From Schmidtea polychroa (Eukaryota): a stretch of 64,000 nt of DNA. Positions 4,261 to 39,329 of the stretch are shown here, in pieces; the stretch's first letter is position 1, and every line of letters begins with the position of its first letter. The position numbers and the translations under genes were made by a program. Under the pieces are notes generated by a model that made no database searches, was not told where the DNA came from, and was given only the letters and a program-made list of their open reading frames with translations. The DNA is taken from assembly GCA_044892525.1 (NCBI GenBank), contig CM097887.1, positions 80,206,397-80,270,396 of the forward strand. Direction: 5' to 3'.

Positions 4261-6464
4261 CAATCGAAGACGGATGGGTCAGTCTGGATTGTGGATTAGT
4301 ATTCTAAGTAAAATTTCTTTGGTTGATTAGAAGGTGTTGATGATTGTTAATAATTGAAGCTTAATTATCTAAAAATATATTCAAATACAAATTGATTGCC
4401 TAAATCTGGTATTATTAAAACAACCGATTTAAAAGGCGAATTAATTAATTTAATAATAATGATAATTATGTGTGCCAGCATTTATACTTATTATACTTTT
4501 ACTATATAATAGAATTTGATACTTATAATGCAATATATATTTTATTTATAAATTAATTATTTTAATATCCCTAACAATAATCAAGCTTATCAACAAAGAA
4601 ATCTCAGCTAGGGAAACAAAGATTTCAGCTTTACGAATATTTTGCATATTTTTTTAATTTATTTTGATGAGAGTTAACGATTGAGACGTCGAAAGATGCA
4701 TGAATTGTTTATGATGAGTTTGAATAAAAAGAATATTTAAACAATTATTTTAATTTAATTAATTTAATAATATATAATAATAATAATAATGATAATAATA
4801 ATAATATATTTTAATTTTAATTATTAAGTTGATATTTTTATTAATGTGTAAGTCGGAGGCACTACATTGAGTGGCACAAAAGGCTACACCAACAACAACC
4901 TTTGAAAAAATAGGAAACATTTATTAAGAACAAGATGGGATTTAGAGCTCACTTGATTTTAGTTTTACAAACTTGACAAAAGTTTCAATATTATTTTTGT
5001 GTCTTTATTCTCCGATGGGCAACATAAATACATTTCTAAAGAAATTCGGAATCTTGGAAAGAATTTTTCTCAAAAGGCAGGGTTAAGAATGTAGCCTTGA
5101 TGGCTAACATCCCATTATTGTTGATATTTTAATTCAGGTTATTTTGCTTTCACAGTTTAGGATTTTCATAAATAATAATTGAAGAAATAACAAATTTTTG
5201 AAACTTATTTAATTTAATATTTACTCGAGTAATCATACAAATAATTATTCTGAGCAATTCTGAATATTTCATCGTTCCATAATTAACGGATTCACAAAAA
5301 CAAAATCCAGAAATTTAAATAAAATTTTTAGAATAGTAAAAAATTGAATTTTCGGGAAATTAAATTTAGATCATGCAGCTCCAAATATGCTAAATTGGAT
5401 TCGCAATCAAAATATTTAAGAAAAATTTATTCAATTACTTTCAAGGAAAAATATTTTACTTCTTTGTCAATCATCCNNNNNNNNNNNNNNNNNNNNNNNN
5501 NNNNNNNNNNNNNNNNNNNNNNNNNNNNNNNNNNNNNNNNNNNNNNNNNNNNNNNNNNNNNNNNNNNNNNNNNNNNNNNNNNNNNNNNNNNNNNNNNNNN
5601 NNNNNNNNNNNNNNNNNNNNNNNNNNNNNNNNNNNNNNNNNNNNNNNNNNNNNNNNNNNNNNNNNNNNNNNNNNNNNNNNNNNNNNNNNNNNNNNNNNNN
5701 NNNNNNNNNNNNNNNNNNNNNNNNNNNNNNNNNNNNNNNNNNNNNNNNNNNNNNNNNNNNNNNNNNNNNNNNNNNNNNNNNNNNNNNNNNNNNNNNNNTT
5801 TATTACTACTATTATTAATTTTCACCCCGGAAACGCACTTTTAAGCGGATCAATTAAATTTTGACAACAACCTCAGAATTTTTCTGATCCTCTTCATGGG
5901 AAGATAATTAAAAAGTGAAATAAAATTCGTTTCTAAAAAAATATTTCGGTAATTTAATTATAAAATTGTTTCCGGTAAAATTAATCGCGAAAATTCTGGT
6001 GGAAGGGCAAATAATTTTTACCAAAGGATTGAAATGTGAATTTTTATTAAAAAGTTTTTTGAGGAAATATTTCGAAAGAATAAATATATTTCGAAAGTTA
6101 TCCACGGCACTTATCAATTTGAAATTTTCAACGCTGTTAGAATACTTTCGTTTCCGTTTCTGTTTCTTTTGAAGAGAAAAGACCAAAACCACCTACCAGG
6201 TCTACAATAAATACATGATTAATTCCAATTTTTGAAGAACAAAGGCTAGGTTTCTAATTTCTGATGAAATATGAAGGAGACATATATCATCTAGATGGAT
6301 GGATCTCTGACTCGCGAATGATCTTCTATCCGGATTGGCCAGACTGGGATTTCAGTGATACCTCAATGCAGATCTATATAGTTTTGGGAACAACACGACT
6401 CTTTATATATCCCTCCCATTATACGTTGTTTATACCAAATTCCGCTGAAATACACCCTCTATAG

Positions 6465-6759
6465 CAGTAATACGCAAACTATTTTAAAGAATTTAAAATG
6501 TGCCGCTAATGCGAAAATATTTTTTTTAGTTATATAATAAAAAAAAGAAGTTAAAATATTTTTTTGTAGTTATTTGCGACAAAAAACAAGCGCACTCATC
6601 CAATTAAATAAAATATATACATTTAATTTCATTTTATTAAAAAAATTCTATATAAAAGATACATTCTTTCTATTTGTGCCTTGACTTTTTTTTTCTATTT
6701 TGTGCCTTGACTTTTTTTTTCTATTTTGTGCCGGGAGGTAAAAAGTTTGCGAACCACTG
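6465..6759. mobile_element. hAT (Buster-like) MITE
   Basis: TIRs CAGTAATACGCAAACT / AGTTTGCGAACCACTG and an exact 8-bp TSD CTCTATAG at 6457-6464 and 6760-6767. Confidence 0.85.
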
Positions 6760-11533: not shown

Positions 11534-12496
11534 ATATAGAAGATGTTTTAGCTACTGTAAATTATTGGAATATTTCAATCGGCAAATATGTAATACCCTT
11601 TCATGTGATGATCAAGAAATAAAGTTTGCCTTTTATGATCGAAATGAAAGAGTGATCGGATTTATTTTTTCCAAAGCAAAATTCCTGTTAGGAATAAATT
11701 TTTTAATAATCTGTAAACTTCTATAGACTTAACACAACTGAGGAAGTTTAGATATTAATCATTAAATTTTATGATAGATATGGAACTGCAACTCTTAAAA
11801 ATATAATGAATTTTACTGATATCTGTATCCCTGCCACACTTTCGAAAAAGCAAGAAAGAAGCGGTTACGTAAAAATATAAATTCAAACATCATTATCATT
11901 TATTAACCAAGTGAAGATTATTTTTATAATCAACAATTTTTTCATTTTATTCAATTTATACTTTGCAACAAAGGCTTATATTATCTTTTACTTGTTGAAC
12001 ATTTGATTAAGAAATNNNNNNNNNNNNNNNNNNNNNNNNNNNNNNNNNNNNNNNNNNNNNNNNNNNNNNNNNNNNNNNNNNNNNNNNNNNNNNNNNNNNN
12101 NNNNNNNNNNNNNNNNNNNNNNNNNNNNNNNNNNNNNNNNNNNNNNNNNNNNNNNNNNNNNNATACAAAAGATGTAGCACTGACTCACTAGAGGAATATT
12201 ACGAGAGCAAGAGAATTCTGCAACAGACAAGGCATCATAGAATGACCAAGAGATCGCTGCCAAAGTAATCCAAATGATTCATAATGTGAATGCGACATTG
12301 ATTCATTGTAAAATCGATTACGTAATTGTCATTGTGACTGATGGTGTATGCATGCTACGTCATATGCTGCCCTCAATTGCTTCCATTAATCATGTAATGA
12401 CTATCTATCAATTTTGATTGGTTGATTTTCCCACAATCGATTTTTATTTCTGTATTGATTTTTATTTTGCCGTACGAGTTATCAGTTAAAAATCGC

Positions 12497-15145
12497 ATGG
12501 TTTTCAAGGAGTTTCTCGATTATTTGAATAAATTCAATTTCATTCATGCTTGTGGAGTTTATGATATTTTTGATCGCTGTGTCTACATATTGACTTTCAC
12601 TTTGCTTCTCGTTTGTTCTGCAACAGTTACTATAAAATCTTATGTGCTGGAACCGATGACTTGTTATGCTCCCTCAACAATTAGCGGATCAAATGTCCTG
12701 CCATACATCAACAATTATTGCTGGATTGTTGGAACGATTCCGAAAGCTGTCCATGAACACGATTTCGACAATGAAGAATATTGGAAGTGGTTGGAGTCCA
12801 GAAAAATAAGTTAGATTTTTGAATATATTGATTATATAATATAAAGTAATATTACGACGGGGAGTGATTCAGGGATTTACTTCTGGCATCGGAACTCAGT
12901 ATTGGTAACATTCATATCTAGAATCTTCCACAAAAGGCTAATAAGAAGGATGAAATATCCACCCTATAAATCTATTTTCGATCCTACATTTTTTAACAAA
13001 AACTAAAGGTTTTTTTAAGATTATTAAAATGTATTTTATTGAATTTAAATAAAATAAATTATTGAAACCCTTAAATATGTAAATTCTTAATTTTTTAAAA
13101 TAAATTAAAGAAAGTTTTAATAAAGTCAATAAAATTTTATAAATTTTTAAATTAATAATAATTTATTTTTTACATGATTTATGCTTAATTGTAAATAAAT
13201 TTTGTCAATTATGCTCTTTTTCATTTTTTTTATTGTTCGAGGATGGGATTATAAAAGACGTAAACTGTATTTCTCGTTCTATATTTTATTGATAAAGCCA
13301 AAGAATTATAATCTCTTTAACGAATCATTTCCAGTTGTATTTTCATGATTCTATATAGTATTTATTAAAAAGCTTGACTATGAATCAGTAAATATATCGA
13401 TGTTTTTGATATTCACAAATTTTCGGTGCTGCCGTTTTCAAGTAATTTCACGAAATTCACTTGAAAAAAAAATGGAAAAGAGATCAGTGGTGAAATTTGA
13501 ATAAAAAGTTCTTATTATATATATATATATATATATATCGTTGGTTTACAAGCAAAATTCACTAAGTACATTTTCCAAGATTTTGATTTTTTGTACTAAA
13601 ATAATTTTTGCAAACCTTTTGAAAACTAAACTTAGAAGCCTAAAAAACTATTTTTTATGCACAAATTGATAGTAAATACAATTACTAAATTTTCAGATAC
13701 ACAAACTTCTTAAATATCGATTTACTAAAAACTATGTTTTTTGACTTAGTGATTTCTGCTTTTAAACCGACTATATATTGTATATACACTCATACCTCGC
13801 TTTACGGCCTAGATACGTTCCAGGAAAGTTGGCCGCAAAGCGAAACGCCGCATAACGAATGAACGCCGCAAATATACAATTCCATATAAATTCAATAGGA
13901 TTTTTGGCCGTATAACGAAACATTTTAGGCCGTAAATCGAAAAAGTGCCGTAATTAAAGTAGGCCGTTATTGCGAAAAGCCGTATAAAGAGCAGCAGTAT
14001 AGCGAGGTATGAGTGTATTGTATTTATTAGAAATTTTTGGACTATGGACCAGTAAAGATATCGATGTTTTTTTATATCTTTATTGATTCATAGTCAAGAT
14101 ATTTTTAATAAAAAGAATGTCAATTGAAAAGAAATCACGGTGAAAATTAAAAAACTTCTTATACTAGATATATTATATATAATAATATTTATTATATATA
14201 TAATAATTTCCTTTATTTACAGATTATTACCAGTGGGTTCCTTTTGTATTAGGATTACAGGCCGCTCTTCTATACATTCCCTATGTGTTTTGGGAGTGCC
14301 TCATATACAATCGACTGGGCACAAATTTACAATTTTTAATCGACCTTGCTCGAAAAGCATCTTTGGATTTCGGAGAAAGTCGACAGAGGAAAATCTCACA
14401 AATGGCCGGAAGTATATTTATCCTATTGACAACACGCAAAAGAAAGTCTAAAAAAGAAATGGGAATTCTGTCGAAGTTACCTATTTATAAAATGGAGATT
14501 GTTCTCCATTATTTATTATTGAAAGTGATCAGCATCATCATGATTTGCTCACAGTTTGTCATAATGGAGAAATTACTTAACATGAATGGCAAACATAAAT
14601 TGTTTGGGATAACATTATTGAAGGATCTCCTCAATGGCCGTTATTGGGATGTTACGAACTTGTTTCCACGAATGGCATTCTGTAGGGTTCCTTTCAAAAT
14701 GCAGAATACGAACGTTGTTAACATCACGACTCAATGTTCTCTGTCAATTAATCTCATCAATGAGAAAATATTTATTTTTCTTTGGTGGTGGTTTAGTTTA
14801 GTTGCAAGTTTACAAATTATCTCTTTATTTATCTGGGTAGCTCGATGTTTATCGTCAGATCGAAGAGTTCAGTTCATTAATCACAGTGCACAAATTAGTA
14901 GATCCTTTCCTTCCCACAGCGAACATCTCATAAAACAATTTGACAGGGATCTCATCTCAGTTGACGGAATATTTCTCATTCACATGACCAGAATCAATTG
15001 TGGTGATCTCATTTGTAATGAGCTTATCCACAAGCTTTATGAAATCCACACTGCAAGCTTGGCAAACCGAGATGATCTCAACGACTCGATTTCTCACAGT
15101 TCAGTGTACAAGGCCAAGGATATTGAAACAACTATGTTTATCTAA
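12497..15145 (+). CDS. inx: Innexin (gap junction protein); exons 12497-12809 and 14223-15145, 411 aa
   Basis: A GT-AG phase-1 join reconstitutes KINYYQWVPF. EL1 cysteines (MTCYAP, NNYCW), FPRMAFC and QCSLSINLINEKIFIFLWWW are present. The spliced length of 1236 nt is divisible by 3. Confidence 0.93.
13787..14015. mobile_element. pogo/Tigger-like MITE in the innexin intron
   Basis: Perfect TIRs CACTCATACCTCGCT / AGCGAGGTATGAGTG flanked by TA. Confidence 0.85.
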
Positions 15146-19639: not shown

Positions 19640-20140
19640 TACATACTTACTTTGATTTCACGTTGATGTTCTCATTTATAGCTCAATGAGATACATTTTA
19701 TACTATATAAATCTGAAAAGTGGAAGAAAAATTAAAAACTGCACATAAACGCAACACATATTAAAAAACACATACAAACTTTTGATTCATAGAAATATAA
19801 CGATGAGATACGTTAATAATAACTTTCTTTTAGACAATTTTTAGAAAAAAAAGATGGTTGAAAATTTTTAAAATCATATTTTTAATGAAAATATCAATAC
19901 CAGATGAATTTGGTTCAATACCTTTTCAATCCAGATTTGATTTCCCGAAAGAAGCCCCTCATATTGAGCTCAGAAAAAAATTACAAAAATTAAAAAAATT
20001 ATTTTAATCAGCGATTTTTCCCAAATGTTTTAAAAAAATACATATTTTTGGTGATTGATTTATTTATTTAATTAATTATAATTAAAAATATATCGGACAT
20101 ACATTTTTTCGAAATAATTCCAAGATAAATGTCATAAAAT
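19640..20140 (+). repeat. Dispersed repeat; inverted copy at about 30840-31290
   Basis: Long reverse-complement similarity, for example CAATCCAGATTTGATTTCCCGAAAGAAGCCC...GAGCTCAGAAA versus TTTCTGAGCTC...GGGCTTCTTTCAGGAAATTAAATCTGGATTG. Confidence 0.75.
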
Positions 20141-20699
20141 TCCTAAAAACCCTGAAAATTAATAAAAAATAATTATACTGTTGATCAAAAGTAATATTTA
20201 AGAACTTGAATAATGATCTCATATCTCATATGGATCAGAATTCAAGTCTTAAAATTTACTCCAAAAATTGACAGACCTCCACTGATAGCAAATATGTTTC
20301 TTTTCTGCAGTTTTTGCTCAATCATTCTGTGTACAGTTTACTTCCATTCAGATAACAGTAAAAATATAGCTAGATTATGACTGGTGGGTTACAGGTACTG
20401 AAAAATCTTTACCCCCTCATGCTGTTTCCAGCGTAACCCAGAATACAATTTATAGCTGACCACTTGATACCCGTTGAGCAATCAACGTTGGTACTGTATC
20501 AAGGGCTTGGGCACTAGCAAAAAGTGAGCATGCTTAGCATACTATAATTGTCTAGTACCCACTGGGGTTCACGGACTGCCGATAGAAGGCCTATGTCCGT
20601 TTTTCTTTGTCCCTATTCCGAAAATCAGCATTATGGCAAATTCGAAATACCCAGACATGAATACACCCATAATATTTATTCACAACACAAAATCAAAAC

Positions 20700-21161
20700 T
20701 CATAGGGTTATAGTCGGTTCTTTCGGTGCAGACTCTGACGAAGTAGCCTTGAGCGTCGCTTGGGCCTGACAGGCTTGGCGGATTTTCGCCCGCGCCGCTT
20801 TACCCGGCCGGATCTTCTTCTTCGGGATCTTCGACGCTGCGCATTCCTTTCGTTGGTGGAGCTGCTCATCCATAGGACGGATCCTGGAGATGACCTCTCG
20901 ATCAAGATTTTGTTGGTGCGACTGGACTTCTAGCTCTCTCACCCTCAGGCGGAGGGCCCGCAACTCAACTTGATCTTGGGCGCTCTGGAGTTGCAACTGG
21001 GTGATGAGTTTCATTCGCTTCTTCATCTCTGTGGGCGGGAACCAGGTGCCCTCGAAGTTTCGGCAATGGGCCTTAAGTCGCATTAACTTGGCCCGATACT
21101 CTTCCACCTGTTGTTGCGCCCTCTCTCTGTCGGCTCTCATTTCTTCCAGGAGTTTTATCAC
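20700..21161 (-). CDS. Orphan coiled-coil/basic ORF (about 153 aa) in a GC-rich island
   Basis: Stop-free GC-rich frame preceded by the acceptor TTATTTATTTCAG and followed by AATAAA about 20 nt after the stop (plus-strand TTTATT at 20675-20680). No recognised family. Confidence 0.55.
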   Translation of the reverse strand: MIKLLEEMRADRERAQQQVEEYRAKLMRLKAHCRNFEGTWFPPTEMKKRMKLITQLQLQSAQDQVELRALRLRVRELEVQSHQQNLDREVISRIRPMDEQLHQRKECAASKIPKKKIRPGKAARAKIRQACQAQATLKATSSESAPKEPTITL

Positions 21162-21588
21162 TGAAATAAATAAAAATTAGTATCTTTTCACACTTTCGTC
21201 AAGTATCCACGTCATATCGCTAACACCATTGTGGCAAAAGTTATAATCTCCCCGTCGCAGCCCGCATCCGTGCGCACCTAAACCCCAACTCCGGTCTTAT
21301 GAGTTTCACTAAGATGTTATGAGGTTGGTGATAATAGTCAACATCTAAAGGAATACCAGTATATACGTATACAATAAGGAAATTCGAACAATTAACTTAA
21401 TATTAATAAACAAAACATAACATAATAACATTTTCACATAAGTTAAGAGAAAATCAAATGCAGAATTGCAAGACAATCACACTTTACACTGCGAGGATAA
21501 CGAAGTCGAGACATGCTAATCATTATAGTGAGTAAGAGTCCACTCGAAGTCGTATCACAAGGCGCGGATATTTGGCCCGGCGATTATC

Positions 21589-22047
21589 TTAGTTGAAGTG
21601 GGCGGTTTTCCGCGGACGCCCACGTTTTCTCGCCGGTTCCGCTCCCCGTCGAGAAGTTCCTAAGTACTCCAGCTCCCGGCGAAGAGCTGCGGTCCGCTTT
21701 GGGTGGCACTGGGCTCGGGCGTAGCCGTCGATGTCTTCCAACTCGCCGGCCAGGACTGAGGTTTCGAGCCGGTCCAGCCGGTCCACCGCCTCCTTCACAT
21801 TGTCGAAGGCGTCACTCAGAGCCAGTGACGTATAATTAATATACGGTTCGATCTTCGGGGTCACTGGAACCACATTCTGATAGGTCCAATCGTGGATTTT
21901 GTACCATATCCACCGGGACCTTAGGCGGGCAACCTCGGCATCTTCCCGTAGTCGTACGGCTTCGTCTGTTTCCTCGCTTGGTGGTCCGCGGCTTGAATCG
22001 GAGGATGAGGGTCCGGCCTGTGCGTTCCATATCATGGTGTTGGGCAT
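21589..22047 (-). CDS. Orphan ORF (152 aa) with a C-terminal AT-hook-like RKRGRPRK
   Basis: Stop-free GC-rich frame with the acceptor TTTATCATTACAG just upstream of the ATG. No recognised family. Confidence 0.55.
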   Translation of the reverse strand: MPNTMIWNAQAGPSSSDSSRGPPSEETDEAVRLREDAEVARLRSRWIWYKIHDWTYQNVVPVTPKIEPYINYTSLALSDAFDNVKEAVDRLDRLETSVLAGELEDIDGYARAQCHPKRTAALRRELEYLGTSRRGAEPARKRGRPRKTAHFN

Positions 22048-22179
22048 ATCTGTAATGATAAAGGGACATTAACACGACTCCCTGTATATACATACTCCCT
22101 ATATATACATAATATACATTTCACCCAACAGTTCACCCACTCGACAATAGTCTTACGAATTTGATAATTAATACGATAA

Positions 22180-22420
22180 AAATGGGTAATTTACATTTTA
22201 TAAATTATATTTATAGTTCAATTTTAATGAAATAAATTTAAAGTCACCCTTACTGCTTTAGTAAGTAATACCCTAAAATTGGGTAATTTACATTTTATAA
22301 ATTAAATTTAAAGTCCGATTTTAATGGAATAAATTTAAAGTCACCCTTACTGGTTTGGTAATTAATACCATAAAAATGGGTAATTTACGTTTTATAAATT
22401 AAAGCTAAAATTATTCATTT
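22180..22420. repeat. Degenerate tandem repeat of about 100 bp, about 2.3 copies
   Basis: Recurring TAAAAATGGGTAATTTACATTTTATAAATTA...TAAATTTAAAGTCACCCTTACTG. Confidence 0.75.
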
Positions 22421-23643
22421 TAGAATCCGTTGTTTAAGTTAATTAAAATTTTAATTTGTTAACTTACTATATAGCCAGTAAATTAAAAAGAAAAACTTGG
22501 AACCAATATGGTCAGTGGAATTTATGCTGCTCTGACCCACTATGGAAAGCGGATATTGCAAATTGACTGAATTTACATTCAGCTCTTTGTGAATCCCTGA
22601 CCATAGTGGTTGTAAGTGGCTCATTCATCAGCTGATATTCGACGGGTAAGTCAACCTTTCATTTTTTAAATTTGTCTAGTTTTAGGAATGGGTTTTCAAG
22701 CCATCCATTTTGGACATGGCATTTCAGGCAGTTAACGTGTTGGGTTTATTGTCGCTTGGTATTAATCCCAGATATGCCTATATACTCAATTCGTGGGGCA
22801 TTTAAGTGGGAATTTTGGAAATTTATATTTGTTTCGGAAATTTTTCTTTCCTCGATCTATATGCCATGGGAATTTAAAACAACAATTGGACCCCGAGGGT
22901 TTCCGAGTAGCCCTCTTCTATTCATTCCTTGGTATTACTGGTGAGACTCTTTTACTTGCTAGAATGGTTTCGTAAGCAAATATTGTTGATTTCATTAAAT
23001 ATATTTTCACTTTTGTTGCATCTCATTTAAGTAATTTTTATGTATCGTAAAGTAATTTATCCAGTAATTTGGTTAACTCTTCCGGGAAATATGCATAATT
23101 AGCAATCATGAATTATTATTATTCCCAACTTTTGATCCTACTGGGCAGGTATTCTAATTCAGGTCGTTGCTCTCGGGGACCCGGTCCCTTGGCATACATG
23201 AGATCTACTTCTGGGTAACAGGGTCAAGTCTGCCAGTGTCCTGGTTTTTATATACAGATTGGAGTTATCACCACTTTAGTTGACGTTGATTGGTCCGTTC
23301 TTGAGAGAGTATGTATCACCCATTCGGTTAGTTAGGAGTAGTTCGTAGGGGTTAACCCTTGGTTTGTAGGGTTGTTACTAATAATAGAAGCGGTATTATT
23401 GGTCTAACTTTGTAACAAAAAAAAATCGATATTGTCGGTTTCGAATTTTCCTATTAATAGTAACATGCCNNNNNNNNNNNNNNNNNNNNNNNNNNNNNNN
23501 NNNNNNNNNNNNNNNNNNNNNNNNNNNNNNNNNNNNNNNNNNNNNNNNNNNNNNNNNNNNNNNNNNNNNNNNNNNNNNNNNNNNNNNNNNNNNNNNNNNN
23601 NNNNNNNNNNNNNNNNNNNNNNNNNNNNNNNNNNNNNNNNNNN

Positions 23644-23766
23644 TGATAATAATGATGGTAATGATAATCGTAATGACAATAACAACAATAATTTTTGATA
23701 ATAATGATTATAGTAATAGAGATAGTAATAATAGTGATACTTTACCAATAATAATAATGATAATGC

Positions 23767-23833
<67 letters not shown>

Positions 23834-23890
23834 CATAATCGTAACACCGAAGACAATACAACAGCAATGTTAATAATGGCAATAACGATA
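23644..23890. repeat. (AAT)n microsatellite next to an N gap
   Basis: Pure AAT run at about 23770-23832 with degenerate flanks. Confidence 0.9.
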
Positions 23891-24064
23891 AGGTTAATCC
23901 TGATAAAAAGTGTAAGTTTTATGCAGTGGGTAATAGATGTATAATCCAGGGGGGTATTCATGAAATTATTAGTTTACCATTTTAAAGACTAAGTATATAT
24001 TGCATAGGTTACTCTCAGATATTAGTATAATAGATAATGAAGGTAGGGTTCAGGGGGGGGGGAT

Positions 24065-24480
24065 GTTTATGAATATTTATAAATTAGGGATTCCATATTA
24101 TATAAGCTAAATATATATAAAAATAAGTGAACCTAGGACAATTAGGTAAATATATAATTTAGGGGCTAATTATGTAGATTTATAAATTATCATTTTAACA
24201 TTTTGTAAGTTGAATATATATCAAAAATAAATTAGGATATCTAGGTATTGGACGATAGATATATAGTTCAGAGGATCATCTATGAAAATTTATAAACTAT
24301 CATTTTTATATTTTATAAGTTAAATATATATACCCAAATAAGTTAGGATCTTTCTATATGAAAATTTATAAACTGTTATTTTAATATTTCATAAGTTAAA
24401 TATATACATCAGAATAAGTTAGGATATTGATGAATAAATATATAGTTCAAAGAACCATTTATGAAACTAGGTAAGTTATA
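24065..24480. repeat. Degenerate AT-rich tandem repeat, several copies
   Basis: Recurring TATGAAAATTTATAAA...TAAGTTAAATATATA...AATAAGTTAGGAT. Confidence 0.65.
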
Positions 24481-27327
24481 CATATTCCAGTGGGGTTATA
24501 ACCACGAACTGGTGGTTTGACGACTTTGTGACATTGGCAAGAAAGATTACCTTTTCTTTAAGTTTAATATACCGCTATATGCAATTACATACTGATGGTC
24601 AGGACACACTCTCTATGAAGATAACGAGAAAAGGGTGTTGAGGATAATGATAATAATCCTGGAGGTGATAGTACTATTAAGGCAAAATAGAATTCTTAAG
24701 GATTTCAATACCCGTAAGGTAAGTATAAAGACTTGTAATTAATACATCATTGAACGTGATTATCTTTAAAATCGAACATAATTATGAATAATATCAATAA
24801 AATCTAATAACAATAGTTAATATTGAGCATATTGAATAATAGTTTGTGCAATTAGCCGACTACTTGATAACTTTTGTGATAAATTGAGTCTGGGATCTTT
24901 CCCGTTTAGCTGTTCTTAATGATGTATTTCCTATAGAATATTTGAGTGTGTATTTTAGATGTGTCGTTTACCGGAAGGTCGAATTAATTAAAATTTTCCT
25001 ACTTTCCCGATTCAACTGAATACGGTACGATAGGCCTTATTGTAATATGTTTCCCGCGATTACTTGCCCGCATTTTATTTCGTCCGCATAGTCCCTGCGA
25101 CTATGCCAACTACCTGGATGGATTTACCGCCCTACTCCTGGTTAGAAACCATTTGTTCGTGGCGACCTTCCGGTTAAAAAATTGAAATTTGGTGCATGTG
25201 AGGTCGTAGACCCGTATAGTGCATGTGAAATAATTAGTGGGAGCAAGGCTGATCAGCGTCGTGGATGCCATCCGTTTACGACGACGCTGGTCACTCTTGT
25301 TCAGTAAAAAAAAAATCAACAAGATAAAAATATAATGAACATAATAATAATGCAATACAAATAAAAATGAAATTAATCAACAGTCCTTACTTTCAGTGTG
25401 GTCCAAAATTTCGGAAAAAAAATTTTTGGCATACAAGAATATCTGAATTGTGACGAAAATGCGTCGGTATATATACCTATTTTGTACACGTGTATGTATT
25501 GATGCATTAAAACAAACTCGAATTCTTTTTATTCCAGAACTTTCTATTTTGTAATTTTGATATTTTTAATGGCTTTGCGTCATAATTTTTATTTTTATTT
25601 TTAAAATTTTATTTCCTAAATATTTTTTGCTACTTTTTCCTCCATGATGGATTTGGAACGGTTCCAGAACATTCCATATTACTTTTAATTCAATTTTATT
25701 TTTAACTGATATTCTACGAATTTCTTTTTAAGAAATTTTATTTTTAATACTAATTTATTTATTTTCTACATTTTATTGTTTAAGGTAGCTTTTATGATGG
25801 TCATCGCCATTTTTATGGAATGTTCTGGGTTTTTCGGGATTTTTTTGCTATTTTTACCGTCTTTTAAGTTATTCGAGTTTGTTTTTTGTAACTCTGTGTT
25901 TATTTGGCTATTTTGAGTTAGATTTTGCATATCTTCTTGTTTTTGTATAATTTTATTTAATTTCTGTGTTTTAGGTTTTGTTGTTTTTTTTTTTTTTTTT
26001 TTTTTCCTTTAATTACTATTGGTTATTTGGTGTAGTTTTTAATATTTAACTATACTTTTTGCTTTCTACATGTTGTGTACCTACGCATTTCAGTCACAAT
26101 TAGAAGTTTGGGTCTAGAAATCAGTTCTAGCCCAACATGACCAAGAAATTAATTGAAAATATTGACCAAAAAGAAATATAAACTCACCTGTTTCTTATTG
26201 CAAATTAGCCATTCGCCTCAAATATTTCAGCTTGTCCGGTTCTTCTTGATACCCTTGCACAATAGTAGCTACTTGTTCTGGTTACCCCATTCTAGCTTTT
26301 TTTCAAAACAAATTTATTATTTGTATTATTAATTGTTTTTTTATAATTAATAATTAATACAATTAATAAATTTTTTTAAAAATCCTTAATTTATATAGTT
26401 ATTGTATATAGTTATCATATAGTTAATTTATATAGTTATCAGCTGAGAATTGAATATTTCAATGATTTGTTAAGATAATTTTAAATGATAAATAATGGAC
26501 TATTAAAATTAATTTTAAAATAATTTTTAAATTAAAAAGAGATTTTGTTAAAGATAAATTTTAAATAAATAGGTTTTTTAAAAGAAGTTTTATTAGTAAA
26601 TAATTTTTAAATAAATACATTTTAAATATCGAAAATTTTAATAAATTGTTTTGAAAATATTTTGTTCAATGCTGAAAATTTGCTTGAAAATTATACAATA
26701 TTTCATTAAAAATAAATACTTGGAATTGTGAAGTTGTCTTTTGAACCTGGTTTAAAAAATAACTTAGAAGATGTTCTAGCAGCTTCTGCAAGTTATTATA
26801 TCCCACCTGATGATGACAGGAAAACTGTCGAAATATATAGTGAAAAGAATGTTTGATTGGCGCTTTCTTATATTTAGATAAATTATGCAAATTATAAAAT
26901 GAAAAGGAAAATTAAAAATAAAAAAACTAATATCAAAAGTCGACAAAATAGTTATAGAATATTTTTCTGTATAAAAAATTCATGTAAACTAAAGAATAGT
27001 CCTATTTACAAACGTTCTATCAAAACGGGTTGTGATGGTAAGCCAACAGCGGTTAGAAATGCACTTGCTTATCTTAAATTCTTTTCACCCCAATTTCCTT
27101 TCTTCATATATGATTGACTCCTTCAAAACTTATAACCGATAAATTTGGATATAGAGAATCATTTGAAACTGTATTATCCTCCTAATAAATTCATTAAAAT
27201 GATAGCCATAAGATGAAAAGATAAGCAATTGAATAGTTTGGAGAATTATAATTGACAGGAGTTCAATTTATATAATGCCTCTCATGTCCAATCTATAAAT
27301 AAGACAGGCATTAATCAAAAACTTTAA

Positions 27328-30819: not shown

Positions 30820-31269
30820 GTTTTATAGGAATCTATGACATTTATTTTTAAGTATTTTGGAATTATTTCGGTATAATGTGAGTCAGATTTATTTTTAATT
30901 ATAATTAAATAAATAAATCAATCACCAAAAATATGTATTTTTCTAAAAAATTTGGGAAAAATCGCCGAGAATGAATAAAATAATTTTTTTAATCTTCTTT
31001 TCTGAGCTCAGCATGAAGGGCTTCTTTCAGGAAATTAAATCTGGATTGAAAAACATTGAACCAAATTCACCTGCAATTGATATTTTCATTAAAAAAATAT
31101 TTTTAAAAATTTGTTGCCAACTATTTTTTTCTCAAAATTGTCTAAAATAAAGTTATTATTTAAATATATCTCAGCGGTACATTTTTATGAATCGAAAGTT
31201 TGCATGTGCTTTTTAGTATGTGTTGTGTTTGCGTGCAATATTTAATTTTTCTATCACTTTAGATTTCTA

Positions 31270-33077
31270 TAGTGTAAAATGTATTTCATTACACTATAAA
31301 TGAGAAAGAACCTACACCTTCTCCTTTTCCTGATAATACCAAACTCTTAAATCAAACGAACCACTGTCAACTCTATAACCTAGGTAAAACGTTTTTTATA
31401 GATATTCATAAAATTCTAAAGAACAATCCTAAACTTACTAACCTTTATATCATCAAAGACTTTTTTCTAATCTTAAGACTTAAAGAAAGATCCCTTAGAA
31501 ATTCCTTACTTGTTCCTCGTACGAATAGGTACCACCCTAATAAATATGCCAATAGTAATCTCCACACTATCGCCTATAAACCAACACCACCGACTTATGA
31601 TCCAAAAACACCTTTAACTGTTCTAGATACTTCCGATCATCAAAAAAATAAATTTGGTGAACCTGATCAACTTAACGAAGACTATCCAACTTCCATATCG
31701 AATATCAACGACTTCGAAAATACTACGAATCCGAGCAATGGAATGAAAGCCAATTTAAATGAACTTATGAACTCTATCATTTCAACCTATCCAGACCTCT
31801 CCGAACCCCTAGCTACTGAACATCTGAATCAAATATCCAGACTTATTCACCAAAATTCCCATACAGAAGAAATTGATCAACTTAACGAGGACCATCCAAC
31901 TGCCATATCAAAGACCAACGACGTTGAAATTACTATTAATCCGAGCAATGGAATAAAAGCCAATTTAAATGAACTTATGAACTCTATCATTTCAACCTAT
32001 CCAGACCTCTCCGAACCCCTAGCTACTGAACATCTGAATCAAATATCCAGACTTATTCACCAAAATTCCCATACAGAAGAAATTGATCAACTTAACGAGG
32101 ACCATCCAACTGCCATATCAAAGACCAACGACGTTGAAATTACTATTAATCCGAGCAATGGAATAAAAGCCAATTTAAATGAACTTATGAACTCTATCAT
32201 CTCAACCTATCCAGACCTCTCCGAACCCCTAGCTACTGAACATCGAAATCAAATATCCAGACTTATTCACCAACAGACCCAATCATAAGAAACTGATCAA
32301 CTTAACGAGGACTATCCAACTGCCATATCAAAGACCAACGACGTTGAAATTACTATTAATCCGAGCAATGGAATAAAAGCCAATTTAAAATAACTTATGA
32401 ACTCTATCAGCTCAACCTATCCAGACCTCTCAGAACCCCTAACTACTGAACATCTGAATCAGATATCCAGACTTATTAATTCAACTACCAAAAATTACAA
32501 CGAAAATAATTCAAAATTGCCAAAATCATTATGTGGGCCGATTTTTAACTCCAACACCGACTTCGACAACAATGACAATTCGATCAACACTGCCTCTCCA
32601 GAAATCCTTACTCCTGATGACATGATAGCCGAAATGAATATGATTGTTGATTCAGTTATCAACTCAAATTCTGACTCCAAAAACACTGCGAGCCCGCTTA
32701 TACAAATCAATAAAATTATCAACTTGATAACCTCAGCTCAAAACATATCTGGACCTCTAACTCCTGAACATATGAATCAAATTAAAATGATTATGTCTAC
32801 TTTCCATAATCACAAAGACAATAATTCGTCACAACCAAACCTACAATTGACTACCAAACTTATTTCATCTATCAACACCTCAAATTCTGACTTATCCGAA
32901 AATCTAACTCCCGATGACATGGATCAATTGACTATGATTATTAATTCAGCGGTCATTGCCAATTCCGATCCCATAAATTTGCCTCTAACTGAACTGGAAA
33001 AACCAAAGAAAAATGGTAAAAAGAAGAAAAAAGGCGACATTAGGCCTTCTTACACAACTGTCAATGGGTACTTGTAG
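31270..33077 (+). pseudogene. Reading frame of about 600 codons with 201-bp (67-aa) tandem repeats and two in-frame stops
   Basis: One frame runs from about 31270 to 33077 with stops only at 32286-32288 and about 32391. About four near-identical 201-bp units span about 31660-32480. It ends in KPKKNGKKKKK. Confidence 0.6.
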
Positions 33078-34777: not shown

Positions 34778-37372
34778 CAGGGGTTCCCAAACTTTTACCA
34801 GTCGAGACCCACTATTTAGACCGCAAAGTTTTCGCGACCCACCTGTAAATAAAACAAGAAAAAAGCTAAAAATGTTGATTTACATATTTATTTAACACGC
34901 ATATTTAAGAATAATTAATAGGATGAATGAGATGAATGAGCCTGCTTTCTATTTTTTGCAATAACATCTTCGACATCTACTTTTATATTTGTTGTTATTA
35001 AGCGAAGTGAGTTTGATAGCTGTAATTTGTTGCGATATTTATTTTTTATTGCAATCATTGACGAAAATGCAACCTCGCATAGATAAGAAGTTGTGAAAGG
35101 AAGCAATACTTTTAACGCTGCGGTGTGTAAAGTTGGATATGTGTTTTGCACCGATAACCAAAACTGTAACAATTTCGTACCGTCAAAATGTAATTTAACA
35201 ACACTATCTTCGAATAGCTCAATTAATTCCTCATCCGCTATCGTCGATATACCGGTAACTAAACCACTTTGAAATGGATTTTGAACCCATGTATATTTTT
35301 CTAGATTTTTCATTTCTCCATAGAAATAAAAATCAAAATTTTCTTTAAGTCTGTCCAAATGCTCAATTATTAAAGAAATTAAATCGTTATTGGGCGTTAC
35401 TTCATTTTCAATGATAAAAGTTTGGAATGTATCAAAGCAGTCATATTTATTTTCTTGAACATTATTTTTCCACAACATAAGTTTTTTTGTAAAAGCTTTT
35501 ATTTTACCATGAACTGAAAATATATCAATTCCATTTGTTCCTTGTAATTGTAAATTTAAATCGTTCAATTTCGAAAATATATCTGCTAAATAAGTCAGCA
35601 AAACTACATATTTCACATCGCGCAAATTTGATGTGTACTCATGTTGTTTATGTTCATGTAAATATATTGCTACTTCTTCGCGAAGTTCAACAAGTCTTGT
35701 CAGGACTTTGCCTTTCGATAGCCAGCGGACTTCTGTATGCAGCAGAAGAGATTTATGTAAACTTCCCATCTCTTCGCAGAGTTTTTGAAATAATCGTGAT
35801 TGTAATGGTTTGCTCTTAATAAAATTTACAATTTTTATAGCAGTGGTCAAAACAGTATTTAGACTTTTTGGTATATTTTTGGATACTAACGCTTCTCTAT
35901 GAATAGTGCAGTGAGTCCACGTTGCATTTGGACATTTTTGAAGACAACGTGTCACAGCACCACACATTGCTTTTGCACCGTCGCTACATATTCCGACGCA
36001 GTTTTTCCAATCCAGTTTTTTCAATGTTATATAAGTGTCGAGCGTATCAAAAATTATTTCACTAGTTCCTCGAATGATTGGTTCACAAAATAATATGTCT
36101 TCAAAGAACTCGTTGCACCATATAAAACGTATGAAAATAATTAGTTGGGACAAACCTTGTACATCGGTTGATTCATCCAGTTGCAACGCAAAAAGTCCAC
36201 TAACTTGAATTCTATGGATAAGCTTATTTTCTACCCATTCGGACATTTCATCAATTCTACGAGCAACTGTGTTATTAGAAAGTGGAATTGATTCAACTTC
36301 TTTTAAGCTCTGCTCTCCAAACATAATTCCAACAGCATCTTTTATAGCTGGAAGTACTAATGACTCTCCAATAGTGTGCGGTTTACCGGATTGTGCAATT
36401 CGCAAACTAATGAGATACGAGGCGAACATAGCCTTTTCATTAATGCTGATGAAGCGAGAAAAAAGATTTTTTGAATTATTTAATTCCTGTAATTTGGTTT
36501 TAAAATAATCAATAGGCTTATTTTTTAAATCGGAATGTTTCGTCTCAAAATGTCGTATTAATTTGTTAGGTCGCATACTTTCATTAGCCAGAATTTCTTG
36601 ACAAATAACACACTGTGGGCGTGGATCATCTTCTTTTCTATTCCATGTAAATCCAAATTTTAGATATTCAGAATCATATTTTCTTTTGCCACGTTTTGAT
36701 GATTGCGAACTTGTTGAAGGATTCTCACCAAATTTTCTCTTATTATCTGTTTTTGTTGCTACAGAACCTTCTTTTTCTTTTTCATTTTCAATTGTTTGAT
36801 TTTGCCCAGGAGTCTTTTTCAACCACTTATCCATCGCAGCAATGGTTCTTTAAAAATAAGAATATTAAGAACTTTATTTATTACATGAAATACTATAGCA
36901 CTAAATTTAAAAAATACTTACATTTGATTTTAAATTATGTTTTTTTATTAACGAAACACTTTTATTAACAATATATATAAACTTTTTTATTAACAACACA
37001 ACAGCGTACTTAGTCCAAAACAAAATTTGCACTGGTTGTCTGAATATTTAAAGTTTGTAATCCTAAATTTCTAATTAACCGTTATTTGTGTTTGGTTGCC
37101 TGGTTAAAATGTAGAAAAGTGGTTGCTATGATGCGATTATTAAAAACAAGTTCTAAATACAAAAATTTGCTAAAAAGAAGTTTAATTTTTAAACCACCTA
37201 AAAATATGCAATAATTTTTTGTCGCAAACCTACTTATATATAAATATTGTGACAAGTTAAGTAAAAGCAAATTAATATGCTCAGTAATACAAATATTAAA
37301 TTTTTGGCTAAATATTAAATTTTTGGCGACACACCGAAAATAGCTTCGCGACCCACACTTTGGGAACCGCTG
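34778..37372 (-). mobile_element. Full-length Buster-family hAT transposon (2595 bp)
   Basis: TIRs CAGGGGTTCCCAAAC / TTTGGGAACCGCTG and an exact TSD ATTTACTG at 34770-34777 and 37373-37380. Confidence 0.95.
34915..36834 (-). CDS. Buster/ZBED5-SCAND3-like hAT transposase, 639 aa
   Basis: BED finger (PQCVIC...RHFETKH), LQLDESTD, CSDGA, HCTIHRE, EVRWLSKG and YLCEVAFS, with no stops. Confidence 0.95.
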   Translation of the reverse strand: MDKWLKKTPGQNQTIENEKEKEGSVATKTDNKRKFGENPSTSSQSSKRGKRKYDSEYLKFGFTWNRKEDDPRPQCVICQEILANESMRPNKLIRHFETKHSDLKNKPIDYFKTKLQELNNSKNLFSRFISINEKAMFASYLISLRIAQSGKPHTIGESLVLPAIKDAVGIMFGEQSLKEVESIPLSNNTVARRIDEMSEWVENKLIHRIQVSGLFALQLDESTDVQGLSQLIIFIRFIWCNEFFEDILFCEPIIRGTSEIIFDTLDTYITLKKLDWKNCVGICSDGAKAMCGAVTRCLQKCPNATWTHCTIHREALVSKNIPKSLNTVLTTAIKIVNFIKSKPLQSRLFQKLCEEMGSLHKSLLLHTEVRWLSKGKVLTRLVELREEVAIYLHEHKQHEYTSNLRDVKYVVLLTYLADIFSKLNDLNLQLQGTNGIDIFSVHGKIKAFTKKLMLWKNNVQENKYDCFDTFQTFIIENEVTPNNDLISLIIEHLDRLKENFDFYFYGEMKNLEKYTWVQNPFQSGLVTGISTIADEELIELFEDSVVKLHFDGTKLLQFWLSVQNTYPTLHTAALKVLLPFTTSYLCEVAFSSMIAIKNKYRNKLQLSNSLRLITTNIKVDVEDVIAKNRKQAHSSHSSY

Positions 37373-37401
37373 ATTTACTGTATTATCATATTTATCAAGT
37401 A

Positions 37402-39112
37402 CAGGGTTATGACGAAATATATTTAAAATCTTGAAATAATATATTTAAAATCTTGAAACAATATATCTAAAAACTTGAAACAATATATTTAAAATCTTGA
37501 AATAATATATTTAAAATCTTGAAACAATATATGTAAAAACTTGAAACAATATATTTAAAATCTTGAAATAATATATTTAAAATCTTGAAACAATATATGT
37601 AAAAACTTGAAACAATATATTTAAAATCTTGAAATAATATATTTAAAATCTTGAAATAATATATTTAAAATCTTGAAACAATATATCTAAAAACTTATAT
37701 TGAAATTTAAAAACTTACATCGATATTTTAAAAACTTCCAAACAATAAATATTAGATTCAATCCAAGAAGCTTTAATGCGCAGTCCATTCTTTTTAAACT
37801 AATTCATATATAACAAAGAAATCACAAATAACGAAATATCGATTTATTCAAATAAACTCTTGTCTAGCAAGAGCTTTTTCAATATATTTCCTCATGTTAG
37901 CAAACCAACCACCAAAATCGATTCCTTCATTATCCAGTGTAGTCCGTATTCTGGTTTTCAATTCATCTCGATTTGCAGCCGAAGGATGAATGGCAAATAG
38001 CACCGATTTAAAATGGCTAAAGTAGTCTTCAATCGGATTTAACTGGGGGAGTAAGGAGGTAAAAATCGAAAATTAATATTATTAGACTCCAACAGACTAA
38101 TAACAGTTCTGGAATGGTGAAACCTACAGTTATCCATTATCAATACGTCATTCGGATTAGATCTAAAATGGCTCAACAACTTTTCCTCAATAAACCACAA
38201 AAACTTTCTCTGTTAAAAGCACCATCTTTGATTTCATAAGAAACTATTCCAGATTTCTTAATTGCCACCATACAACTGATATTAGTACCACGATTGCCTT
38301 TAACGATTTTGTAGGCTTTTGAATTTTTGGGCGAGTAACCGTAGTTCCTGGTTTGATGCAAATTCAATCCGGTTTCATCCAAAAAAACCAAATGATCATT
38401 CGAGATAAAATTTGTTTCAACGGGTGTATCTTTGCCTTAGATCGATATTTTAGGGGTGTTTCGTTCCTATGGAATTCTGACCAGTCGTTTCCTGGTATAT
38501 TCCATCTTTTTAAGTATTTTAGAAACAGCACTCGAGCACCTAGTTATTCCGGAGTGTTGCAACTCTTCGGATAGTTCGGGCTGGGTAAATGAGGCGCCTC
38601 TTTGTAAAATTTGGCTTATTTTGGATTTCACGACGGACAAATCTGCCATTTTCCTTCCTTTCTTCGGACCGCAGATTTCTTCGTCCGTTGCGCCGTCGCA
38701 TAGTTTTCCGACCAGGTTATATGCGGTCTGCAGACTAATCTCTTGCTCGGAGGCGATTGTTTTTGTATCGGTATTTTTTTCAACCGATTTTCGGACTCGT
38801 TTTATGATTTCGAGCGTAACAGTTTGCCGCCTTTTTCGAACCCTGACATCTTGGCGCTCTTCGGAGGTTTGTTCAGTGCTGTTGGACATGGTTGAGGGAT
38901 TTAGTTTTGAATGCATAAATTCCAGTCTTAAAATATATCGATGTAGGTTTTTAAAATTTCAATATAAGTTTTTAGATATATTGTTTCAAGATTTTAAATA
39001 TATTATTTCAAGATTTTAAATATATTATTTCAAGATTTTAAATATATTATTTCAAGATTTTAAATATATTATTTCAAGATTTTAAATATATTATTTCAAG
39101 ATTTTAAATATA
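37402..39112 (-). mobile_element. Tc1/IS630-type DD34E element with long inverted arms of 22-bp tandem repeats; transposase disrupted
   Basis: TA-CAGGG left end. The minus strand gives HTH region (38467-38916), FLDETG, and MDN-(34)-FLPPYSPQLNPIE, with stops and a frameshift near 38190. About 13 units of ATATATTTAAAATCTTGAAA(T/C)A lie on the left and about 6 inverted units on the right. Confidence 0.85.
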
Positions 39113-39329
39113 TATAAATATATAAACATATAAAGACATGATGCATACATGAGTCATAAGATGAATGATTAAACACACTGTGGACTTTGAATTTATGACC
39201 CCAAAATTAGAAAATTTTATTCACATTATTATTAATTACACATCGCTGAACTTCATAAATTCATTTATTAAAAATATTGCGTTAGATTTCAATTTACTAG
39301 TACCCAATAAATTTATTATTTATTATTAG

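Follow-up and report, generated by a model that had tools for sequence, protein, structure and literature searches.

Two genes under purifying selection inside the long terminal repeat of a Burro-type giant retroelement of Schmidtea polychroa, with a predicted spliced leader and a proposed regulatory role

The window, a stretch of 64,000 nucleotides of Schmidtea polychroa DNA, carries on its minus strand two co-oriented open reading frames of about 150 codons, here called ORF A and ORF B. Stop to stop they extend over 21589-22068 (159 codons, with an ATG at 22047) and 20700-21176 (158 codons). The first-pass annotation, made from the letters of the window, had described them correctly in most respects; both the RKRGRPRK of ORF A and the KKKIRPGKAARAKIR of the basic tail of ORF B are present, a pyrimidine tract and a CAG splice acceptor precede each frame, and an AATAAA follows the second one at 20680-20675. 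The exon of ORF B is, however, predicted to begin at 21160 and not at 21163 as had been suggested. The two frames and their signals are as follows.

21589..22047, minus strand: ORF A, 152 amino acids; variable N-terminus rich in Ser, Pro and acidic residues, helical core, C-terminal AT-hook-like motif
21601..21630, minus strand: AT-hook-like motif RKRGRPRK, residues 140-149 of ORF A
22050..22051, minus strand: splice acceptor AG of ORF A; exon from 22049, two bases ahead of the ATG
20700..21160, minus strand: ORF B, about 153 codons from the acceptor; long predicted helices, coiled-coil-like, basic tail
21161..21162, minus strand: splice acceptor AG of ORF B; exon from 21160, first bases TG, phase 1
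20675..20680, minus strand: predicted poly(A) signal AATAAA, conserved in 25 of the 27 diverged copies that align here

Both frames are far richer in GC (58.8% in ORF A and 54.8% in ORF B) than the window as a whole (31.3%), while the DNA between them has 38.3% and the pol region of the parent element described below 39.2%. The island had also been called CpG-rich, and this part did not hold: the observed/expected ratio of CpG is 1.12 in ORF A and 0.90 in ORF B against 0.93 in the whole window. The CpG richness is thus GC richness alone, and that the frames stay open despite it, which had been taken as a sign of recent arrival or of selection, therefore argues nothing.

The borders first given to the island, 20560..22130, were too narrow, since the repeated unit continues for 4 kb further upstream. 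The TGTTGGG at 22130, which had been read as the start of the block or of an LTR, is an internal match. The true first bases of the LTR are the TGTTGGG at 26137, its last base is 20382, and the ORF cassette sits inside it.

20382..26137, minus strand: solo LTR of a Burro-type giant Ty3/gypsy element, ends as in both LTRs of full-length copies
20378..20381, no strand: target-site duplication TGAC, left copy, 4 bp
26138..26141, no strand: target-site duplication TGAC, right copy, 4 bp
22152..22442, no strand: tandem array of three AT-rich units, 97 bp each, in the predicted intron

These borders were set by comparing four same-strand pairs of copies with the window. They delimit an LTR of 5,756 bp with TG...CA ends and a target duplication, and neither flank is related to the interior of the element, making it a solo LTR. 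An empty-site joint between 20376 and 26137 is seen in the public runs X1 and X2 (X2 is possibly the source of the assembly itself); the 5,760 bases skipped equal the LTR plus the 4-bp duplication. A DNA search of the same genome, in which 40 of 979 candidates were scored, returned 41 matches: the window, 39 copies at 98-99% identity and one partial match at 75%. There are hence at least 39 other copies, and the term orphan ORFs does not apply. Sixteen of the 40 scored copies form eight same-strand pairs 30-44 kb apart, and the LTR copies are spread over all four large contigs, with target duplications of their own.

The surroundings of the LTR contain several further features. It adjoins a repeat at 19670-20150, of which an inverted copy of 83% identity is found 11 kb off, at 30853-31306. 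Pieces of an innexin gene (Pfam PF00876, E 2e-53 for 14207-15142) are found at 12401-15145, 5 kb to the left of the LTR. Long ORFs with four 210-bp (70-aa) tandem units and no Pfam match at E<=0.001 occupy 31278-33077, an intact-looking ORF of 644 aa, judged by eye to be hAT-type transposase-like, occupies 34915-36849, and an element at 37350-39135, by eye foldback or Tc1-like, has inverted 22-bp tandem units at both ends and a 163-aa ORF (38467-38958) inside.

The parent of the window LTR is a 37-kb Burro-type Ty3/gypsy element. A full-length copy (G000:C2:45265266-45302137) measures 36.9 kb and has LTRs of 5.7 kb, which agrees with the length above 30 kb and the multi-kb LTRs of the Burro elements. 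According to Pfam the paired LTRs enclose zf-CCHC, MATH, a mononegavirus-type fusion glycoprotein, protease, RT, RNase H and integrase, as well as ankyrin, TRAF/MATH and BIR-RING domains of the kind carried as cargo by Burro. One open stretch of 2,601 aa (L016) holds zf-CCHC, MATH and Monjiviricetes_fusion (E 9e-66), and the protease lies in the adjoining stretch (L015), so that gag, MATH and glycoprotein come before the protease as in Burro; the PR-RT-RH-IN order of Ty3/gypsy is found in L015 and L020. The interior ORFs have the orientation of ORF A and ORF B. A matching domain layout has been described for Burro/GYPSM1, the giant gypsy-like LTR retrotransposons of planarians (PMC6431247). 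No BCL2-like domain was detected by Pfam at E<=0.001 in the parent element. The three full-length elements checked with LTRs of the window type (family 1) all have 4-bp duplications (ATAG, AAAG and GTAG), and in one of the LTR pairs the two LTRs are 99.8% identical.

Some other properties of the interior may be mentioned. In the full-length element a 160-aa RING-finger ORF (L017:187-666) follows the 5' LTR and precedes gag, and three ORFs of 341, 261 and 533 aa lacking Pfam matches are located between the BIR-RING gene and the 3' LTR (L014:6345-9927); two of these are coiled-coil-like, and one has a hydrophobic stretch near each end. A purine-rich tract is absent immediately 5' of the 3' LTR (L014:5999-6040 and L017:1380-1405), and the sequence preceding this LTR is partly complementary to a PBS-like stretch that starts with TGG, 8 nt past the 5' LTR.

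More diverged copies were collected with the protein sequence of ORF A. This search gave 150 scored matches out of 1,896 candidates, with 70-100% identity, of which 141 are stop-free, and 40 of the 150 were fetched, picked to span the identity range. ORF B is found downstream of ORF A on the same strand in 38 of these 40 family-1 copies. The AG at -4/-3 of the ORF A start codon is also kept in 38 of the 40, and the ORF B acceptor AG followed by TG in all 38 copies that have ORF B. By the method of Nei-Gojobori, for pairs with dS>0.15, ORF A has dN 0.158 and dS 0.716, a ratio of 0.22 (0.125 in the core), in a set of the window and 39 copies from which the frameshifted L072 was dropped. ORF B has dN 0.122 and dS 0.743, a ratio of 0.17 (core 0.095), in a set of the window and 33 copies, seven having been dropped as broken or absent. 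dN is lower than dS in every pair with dS>0.15 (726/726 for ORF A and 475/475 for ORF B), where it should be kept in mind that the picking of copies by protein similarity biases dN/dS downward and also biases the counts of open frames, and that the pairs share ancestry and are not independent. The synonymous excess is large despite this bias, and both ORFs are under purifying selection. The genome harbours diverged subfamilies, with dS of about 0.7 between them.

A distant relative of ORF A, 33% identical in local alignment and 36-43% in multiple alignment, served as seed for a second family. Its ORF A search gave 150 scored matches of 2,625 candidates, 145 of them stop-free, and 20 loci were fetched. 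When compared to the window LTR, the family-2 LTRs are alike in the first 730 and the last 220 bases, at about 80-88%. Family 2 retains ORF A, ORF B (39-47% identity), their order and their acceptors; the AG followed by TG of ORF B is found in 16 of 18 rows, and in 14 of the 18 an AATAAA is no more than 200 nt from the stop of ORF B. L118 gave no match at the expected place, and L134 has no ORF B.

An element with family-2 LTRs (L115 and L147-L149, G000:C3:110706834-110742442; duplication CTAC, LTR pair 99.7% identical) was compared with one with family-1 LTRs (L014-L017). In this one pair the interiors are 93-95% identical in DNA, and the RT is identical over 159 residues. Because both LTR types flank such similar interiors, the cassette appears to be exchangeable, and this element pair suggests that the middle of the LTR has been swapped as a module, probably through recombination in the shared ends. 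The mosaic N-termini of ORF A in L070, L071 and L074, as well as the family-2-like leader found on a family-1 LTR in L028, agree with such modular exchange.

When it comes to expression, a promoter and a short leader exon are predicted far upstream of the cassette.

25468..25475, minus strand: TATA-like box, predicted LTR promoter from which the putative start site is placed
25391..25455, minus strand: leader exon 1 (predicted; its 5' end is an estimate), start codon ATG at 25432 and donor GT at 25390
24972..25295, minus strand: possible optional non-coding exon 2, a weak candidate with an AAG acceptor near 25296 and a donor at 24971

The TATA-like motif is kept in the 29 family-1 and 17 family-2 loci that have the promoter within the fetched stretch. 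Together with the leader it lies 3.3 kb upstream of the ORF cassette, and the ORFs themselves are 3.4-4.8 kb downstream of the box, which would set them apart from U3 genes of the MMTV sag type. In a set of 29 diverged family-1 copies the donor at 25390 is kept in 20/20 of those aligned and the one at 24971 in 22/22. The distance from leader ATG to donor is 28, 40 or 43 nt, with the frame open and in phase 1, in 27 of 29 family-1 rows (from 28 loci, as 12 of the 40 family-1 loci have no promoter match inside the fetched stretch), and it is 43 nt in phase 1 in 7/7 sibling LTRs. The window has 42 nt compared to the 43 of its siblings, and its leader is therefore out of phase; both of its ORFs are intact. 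Of 17 family-2 rows, just 5 have a leader ATG frame that is open and in phase. The last base of the leader exon is an A in 54/54 rows while base -2 takes all four letters, and the leader phase fits the acceptors of both ORF A and ORF B. A Met is absent from the first 40 conserved residues in most family-2 rows of ORF B.

A contig of run X1, which is RNA only by guess, stops aligning at 24975, close to the 24971 donor, and at this position 33/33 genomic copies align onward for at least 50 nt; this is a weak hint of exon 2. Among the contig rows listed, from runs that are RNA only by guess, there are no splice joints at the predicted sites. Parts without cover in runs X1, X6 and X7 were left out of the evidence, and a joint from 21168 to 21695 in X1 was not counted as a splice, being off the splice sites and with intervening letters unknown. 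A coding leader at 22604-22541, in phase 1 in the window, was discarded: 11 of the 40 copies could not be aligned there, and of the remaining 29 it has a shift or a stop in 12. Intron 1 of the window LTR does not end in a duplicate of exon 1. At 11 internal ORF starts of the parent element, at most one plausible phase-1 acceptor with a good pyrimidine tract was found (that of the 261-aa ORF).

One genomic copy looks like a fossil of splicing. L130 (G000:C1:74856277-74863639, sense 4267-6509) is a 2,242-bp family-2 solo LTR whose target duplication is AGTC. Its four nearest relatives among the fetched loci are 94-96% identical, and against them it lacks to the base a GT...AG stretch of 3.2-3.7 kb reaching from the leader to ORF A. 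Such a precise loss implies that an RNA spliced from the leader to ORF A was reverse-transcribed and integrated, and it places this part of the LTR inside a transcript. A microhomology deletion at the five shared bases was rejected, as it would retain the G of the acceptor, and this G is gone. Among 40 scored matches the junction is spanned by L130 and by an identical match on C611 alone; the searched 120 bases at the junction do not differ between L130, on C1, and the C611 match, and the two are probably one locus. Genome pattern searches found neither processed copies of a leader-to-ORF B RNA nor any processed family-1 copy; of the three proximity patterns, two matched nothing and one matched two unrelated places. 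The loss of the intron is one event, in family 2 and for ORF A only. Together with the in-phase leader exon it supports the early suggestion of alternative splicing from one leader.

ORF A is predicted to form four helices (25-57, 72-99, 106-113 and 116-132) flanked by a disordered N-terminus and tail, in a model with a mean pLDDT of 66.6 and a pTM of 0.24. Hardly any variation is seen in the Trp-rich stretch R41-W54 or in RKRGRPRK when both LTR types are aligned. The Pfam model AT_hook (PF02178) hits ORF A with E 0.012 and 15.8 bits, below its cut-off of 17.4, and reaches E<0.1 in 12 of 29 ORF A members. AT-hooks bind AT-rich DNA. ORF B is predicted to have three helices, one of them 68 residues long (pLDDT 82.6, pTM 0.38), and its basic tail is found in both LTR types.

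Profile and structure searches, as advised in the first-pass annotation, yielded no informative homologue or fold for either protein. The homologue search returned none for ORF A and, for ORF B, one ENA cluster at 78% belonging to the same family. An ORF A profile run against 1.84 billion representatives found one protein, matching the basic motif only. The Atlas gave nothing for ORF A and generic coiled coils for ORF B, and Foldseek at E<=0.001 gave no match for ORF A (PDB and viral sets) or ORF B (viral set). Pfam, sequence and fold comparisons did not detect homology of either ORF to regulators of the Rev, Rem or CERV type, and neither Pfam, sequence nor Foldseek searches gave an informative homologue or fold backing any function for them.

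The identity and the ends of the LTR, its parent element, its copy number and the purifying selection on both ORFs are established, as are the conserved donor, acceptors and phase and the one intron-less leader-ORF A copy of family 2. The proposal that the cassette consists of accessory genes of a giant retroelement is supported, the unit being the LTR of a Burro-type element. The preferred explanation, given a probability of roughly 0.6, is that the window holds a solo Burro-type LTR with two selected genes which are likely transcribed from the LTR promoter and likely spliced to one short leader, and whose products are predicted nuclear regulators of the element.

The transcriptional part of this explanation is likely. 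RNA polymerase II would start right after the TATA-like box at 25475, and the leader exon, in phase 1 and ending in A, would be joined to ORF A, which has its own ATG. Alternatively the leader would be joined to ORF B, where its last A together with the TG would make a start codon or the first shared codon. Both RNAs would terminate past the AATAAA at 20680. It is an evenly balanced proposal that ORF A, by way of its AT-hook-like motif, influences transcription of the LTR, and that unspliced RNA is the target of ORF B. A donor, two acceptors and a poly(A) signal within the 5' LTR imply that the element needs some of its RNA kept unspliced and unterminated. ORF A may bind AT-rich LTR DNA in the manner of a transactivator, while ORF B may oligomerise by its long helix and bind nucleic acid by its basic tail, so that unspliced genome-length RNA could avoid being spliced or polyadenylated within the 5' LTR and leave the nucleus, as happens with Rev or CERV.

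A more tentative idea, to which clearly less than even odds are given, is that the LTR middle is a swappable and self-contained module of transactivator-like and Rev-like proteins, made by splicing to the LTR's leader, with their cognate DNA or RNA sites, present as diverged types on near-identical backbones. The proteins and the surrounding non-coding DNA appear to have been exchanged together, which fits protein-site pairs but falls short of proof. If the module idea is true, regulators would be supplied in trans by hundreds of solo LTRs, each a complete transcription unit, and a regulation like that of complex retroviruses would have arisen independently in an invertebrate Ty3/gypsy lineage.

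The LTR genes might instead be directed at the host and not at expression of the element, either as anti-silencing factors or as cell-survival effectors like the BIR-RING cargo. This is rather improbable, though it is the alternative to be taken most seriously. The element does carry BIR, RING, TRAF/MATH and ankyrin cargo, the Burro1 BIR-RING protein is reported to protect stem cells (Lee 2026, as cited in PMC13465017), and two very different cassettes on one backbone would fit an arms race with the host. However, domains associated with apoptosis, ubiquitin or silencing are absent from both ORFs, purifying selection within a family constrains both cores strongly, and the basic motifs point toward nucleic-acid binding. 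The predicted long helix and basic tail of ORF B, and the envelope-like protein encoded by the element, would also suit structural or packaging helpers such as a nucleic-acid chaperone and a virion-associated coiled coil. It is unlikely that the ORFs have this role and are not regulators, as Gag already contains CCHC knuckles, and nuclear regulators would be a better fit to an AT-hook-like motif and to expression from a spliced RNA of its own made early.

Captured host genes or an unrelated nested element, riding passively in the LTR, would account for the contrast between the 55-59% GC of the cassette and the 39% of the element pol, and no relatives were found outside LTRs. Against such riders stand the purifying selection across subfamilies with dN/dS well below 1, the matching layout in two LTR types, the lack of inner terminal repeats or a duplication around the ORFs, and the splicing to the LTR's own leader in L130; the explanation is highly improbable. 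The independent endogenous viral segment, recent horizontal arrival and contamination considered at the outset can, together with misassembly, be given practically no weight. Nothing but the GC contrast with the surroundings speaks for them, while hundreds of candidate copies lie on four large contigs with target duplications of their own, the subfamilies are old, with dS of about 0.7, and contigs of X1 and X2 cover parts of the LTR and show the empty-site joint.

The preferred explanation, element-directed regulators made from leader-spliced RNAs, would have several consequences. The literature searched gives no account of how Burro elements, which rank with the largest LTR retroelements, regulate their own expression. 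Two selected genes past the promoter would explain part of the LTR size. As the ORFs lie downstream of the predicted promoter, on the R/U5 side, a solo LTR would contain a transcription unit in full, and every solo LTR would potentially express protein. The ORF A and ORF B transcripts would be two small RNAi targets for studying how the element is switched on, and the two very different cassettes on one backbone constitute a natural test of specificity.

Burro/GYPSM1 shares with the parent element described here the length above 30 kb, the CCHC Gag, MATH, the fusion glycoprotein between gag and protease, PR-RT-RH-IN and the ankyrin, BIR and RING cargo (PMC6431247), but the sections of that account considered here name no LTR-internal genes. 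Genes inside Burro LTRs are likewise not described in the covered parts of PMC6431247, PMC8532177, PMC13465017, PMC11410931 and PMC7264820; the primary Burro papers lie outside this set and may annotate them. Very long LTRs, of 1.9-6.5 kb, are also found in Ogre (PMC6431247). Plant LTR elements resemble the present one in having extra ORFs of unknown function that have been proposed to be regulators (PMC6431247 and PMC7264820, each in part), but these ORFs are in the internal region, and a location within the LTR is not mentioned in the covered part of PMC7264820.

In Cer1 of C. elegans export is handled by CERV, which is made from a spliced RNA (PMC10309623, in the part covered). An LTR-element gene without known homologues is common to Cer1 and the Burro-type LTR, and for the latter a spliced RNA and an intron-containing RNA to be exported are predicted as well. 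CERV differs in being large with three predicted domains, while ORF A and ORF B are two proteins of 150 aa inside the LTR; no similarity in sequence or fold was found between them, and the likeness of the proposed regulatory role to that of HIV Rev and MMTV Rem is one of analogy. MMTV sag is an accessory gene that adds to the length of its LTR, as the LTR ORFs do, and its RNA is spliced, as is predicted for theirs, but it overlaps U3 and encodes a membrane superantigen, whereas the LTR ORFs encode predicted basic helical proteins (PMC9147501, in the part covered). The element family is already known, and genes encoded by LTRs have a U3 precedent in MMTV sag (PMC9147501); what is added here is the phase test of the leader, the copy that lacks the intron, and the finding of one backbone with two types of cassette.
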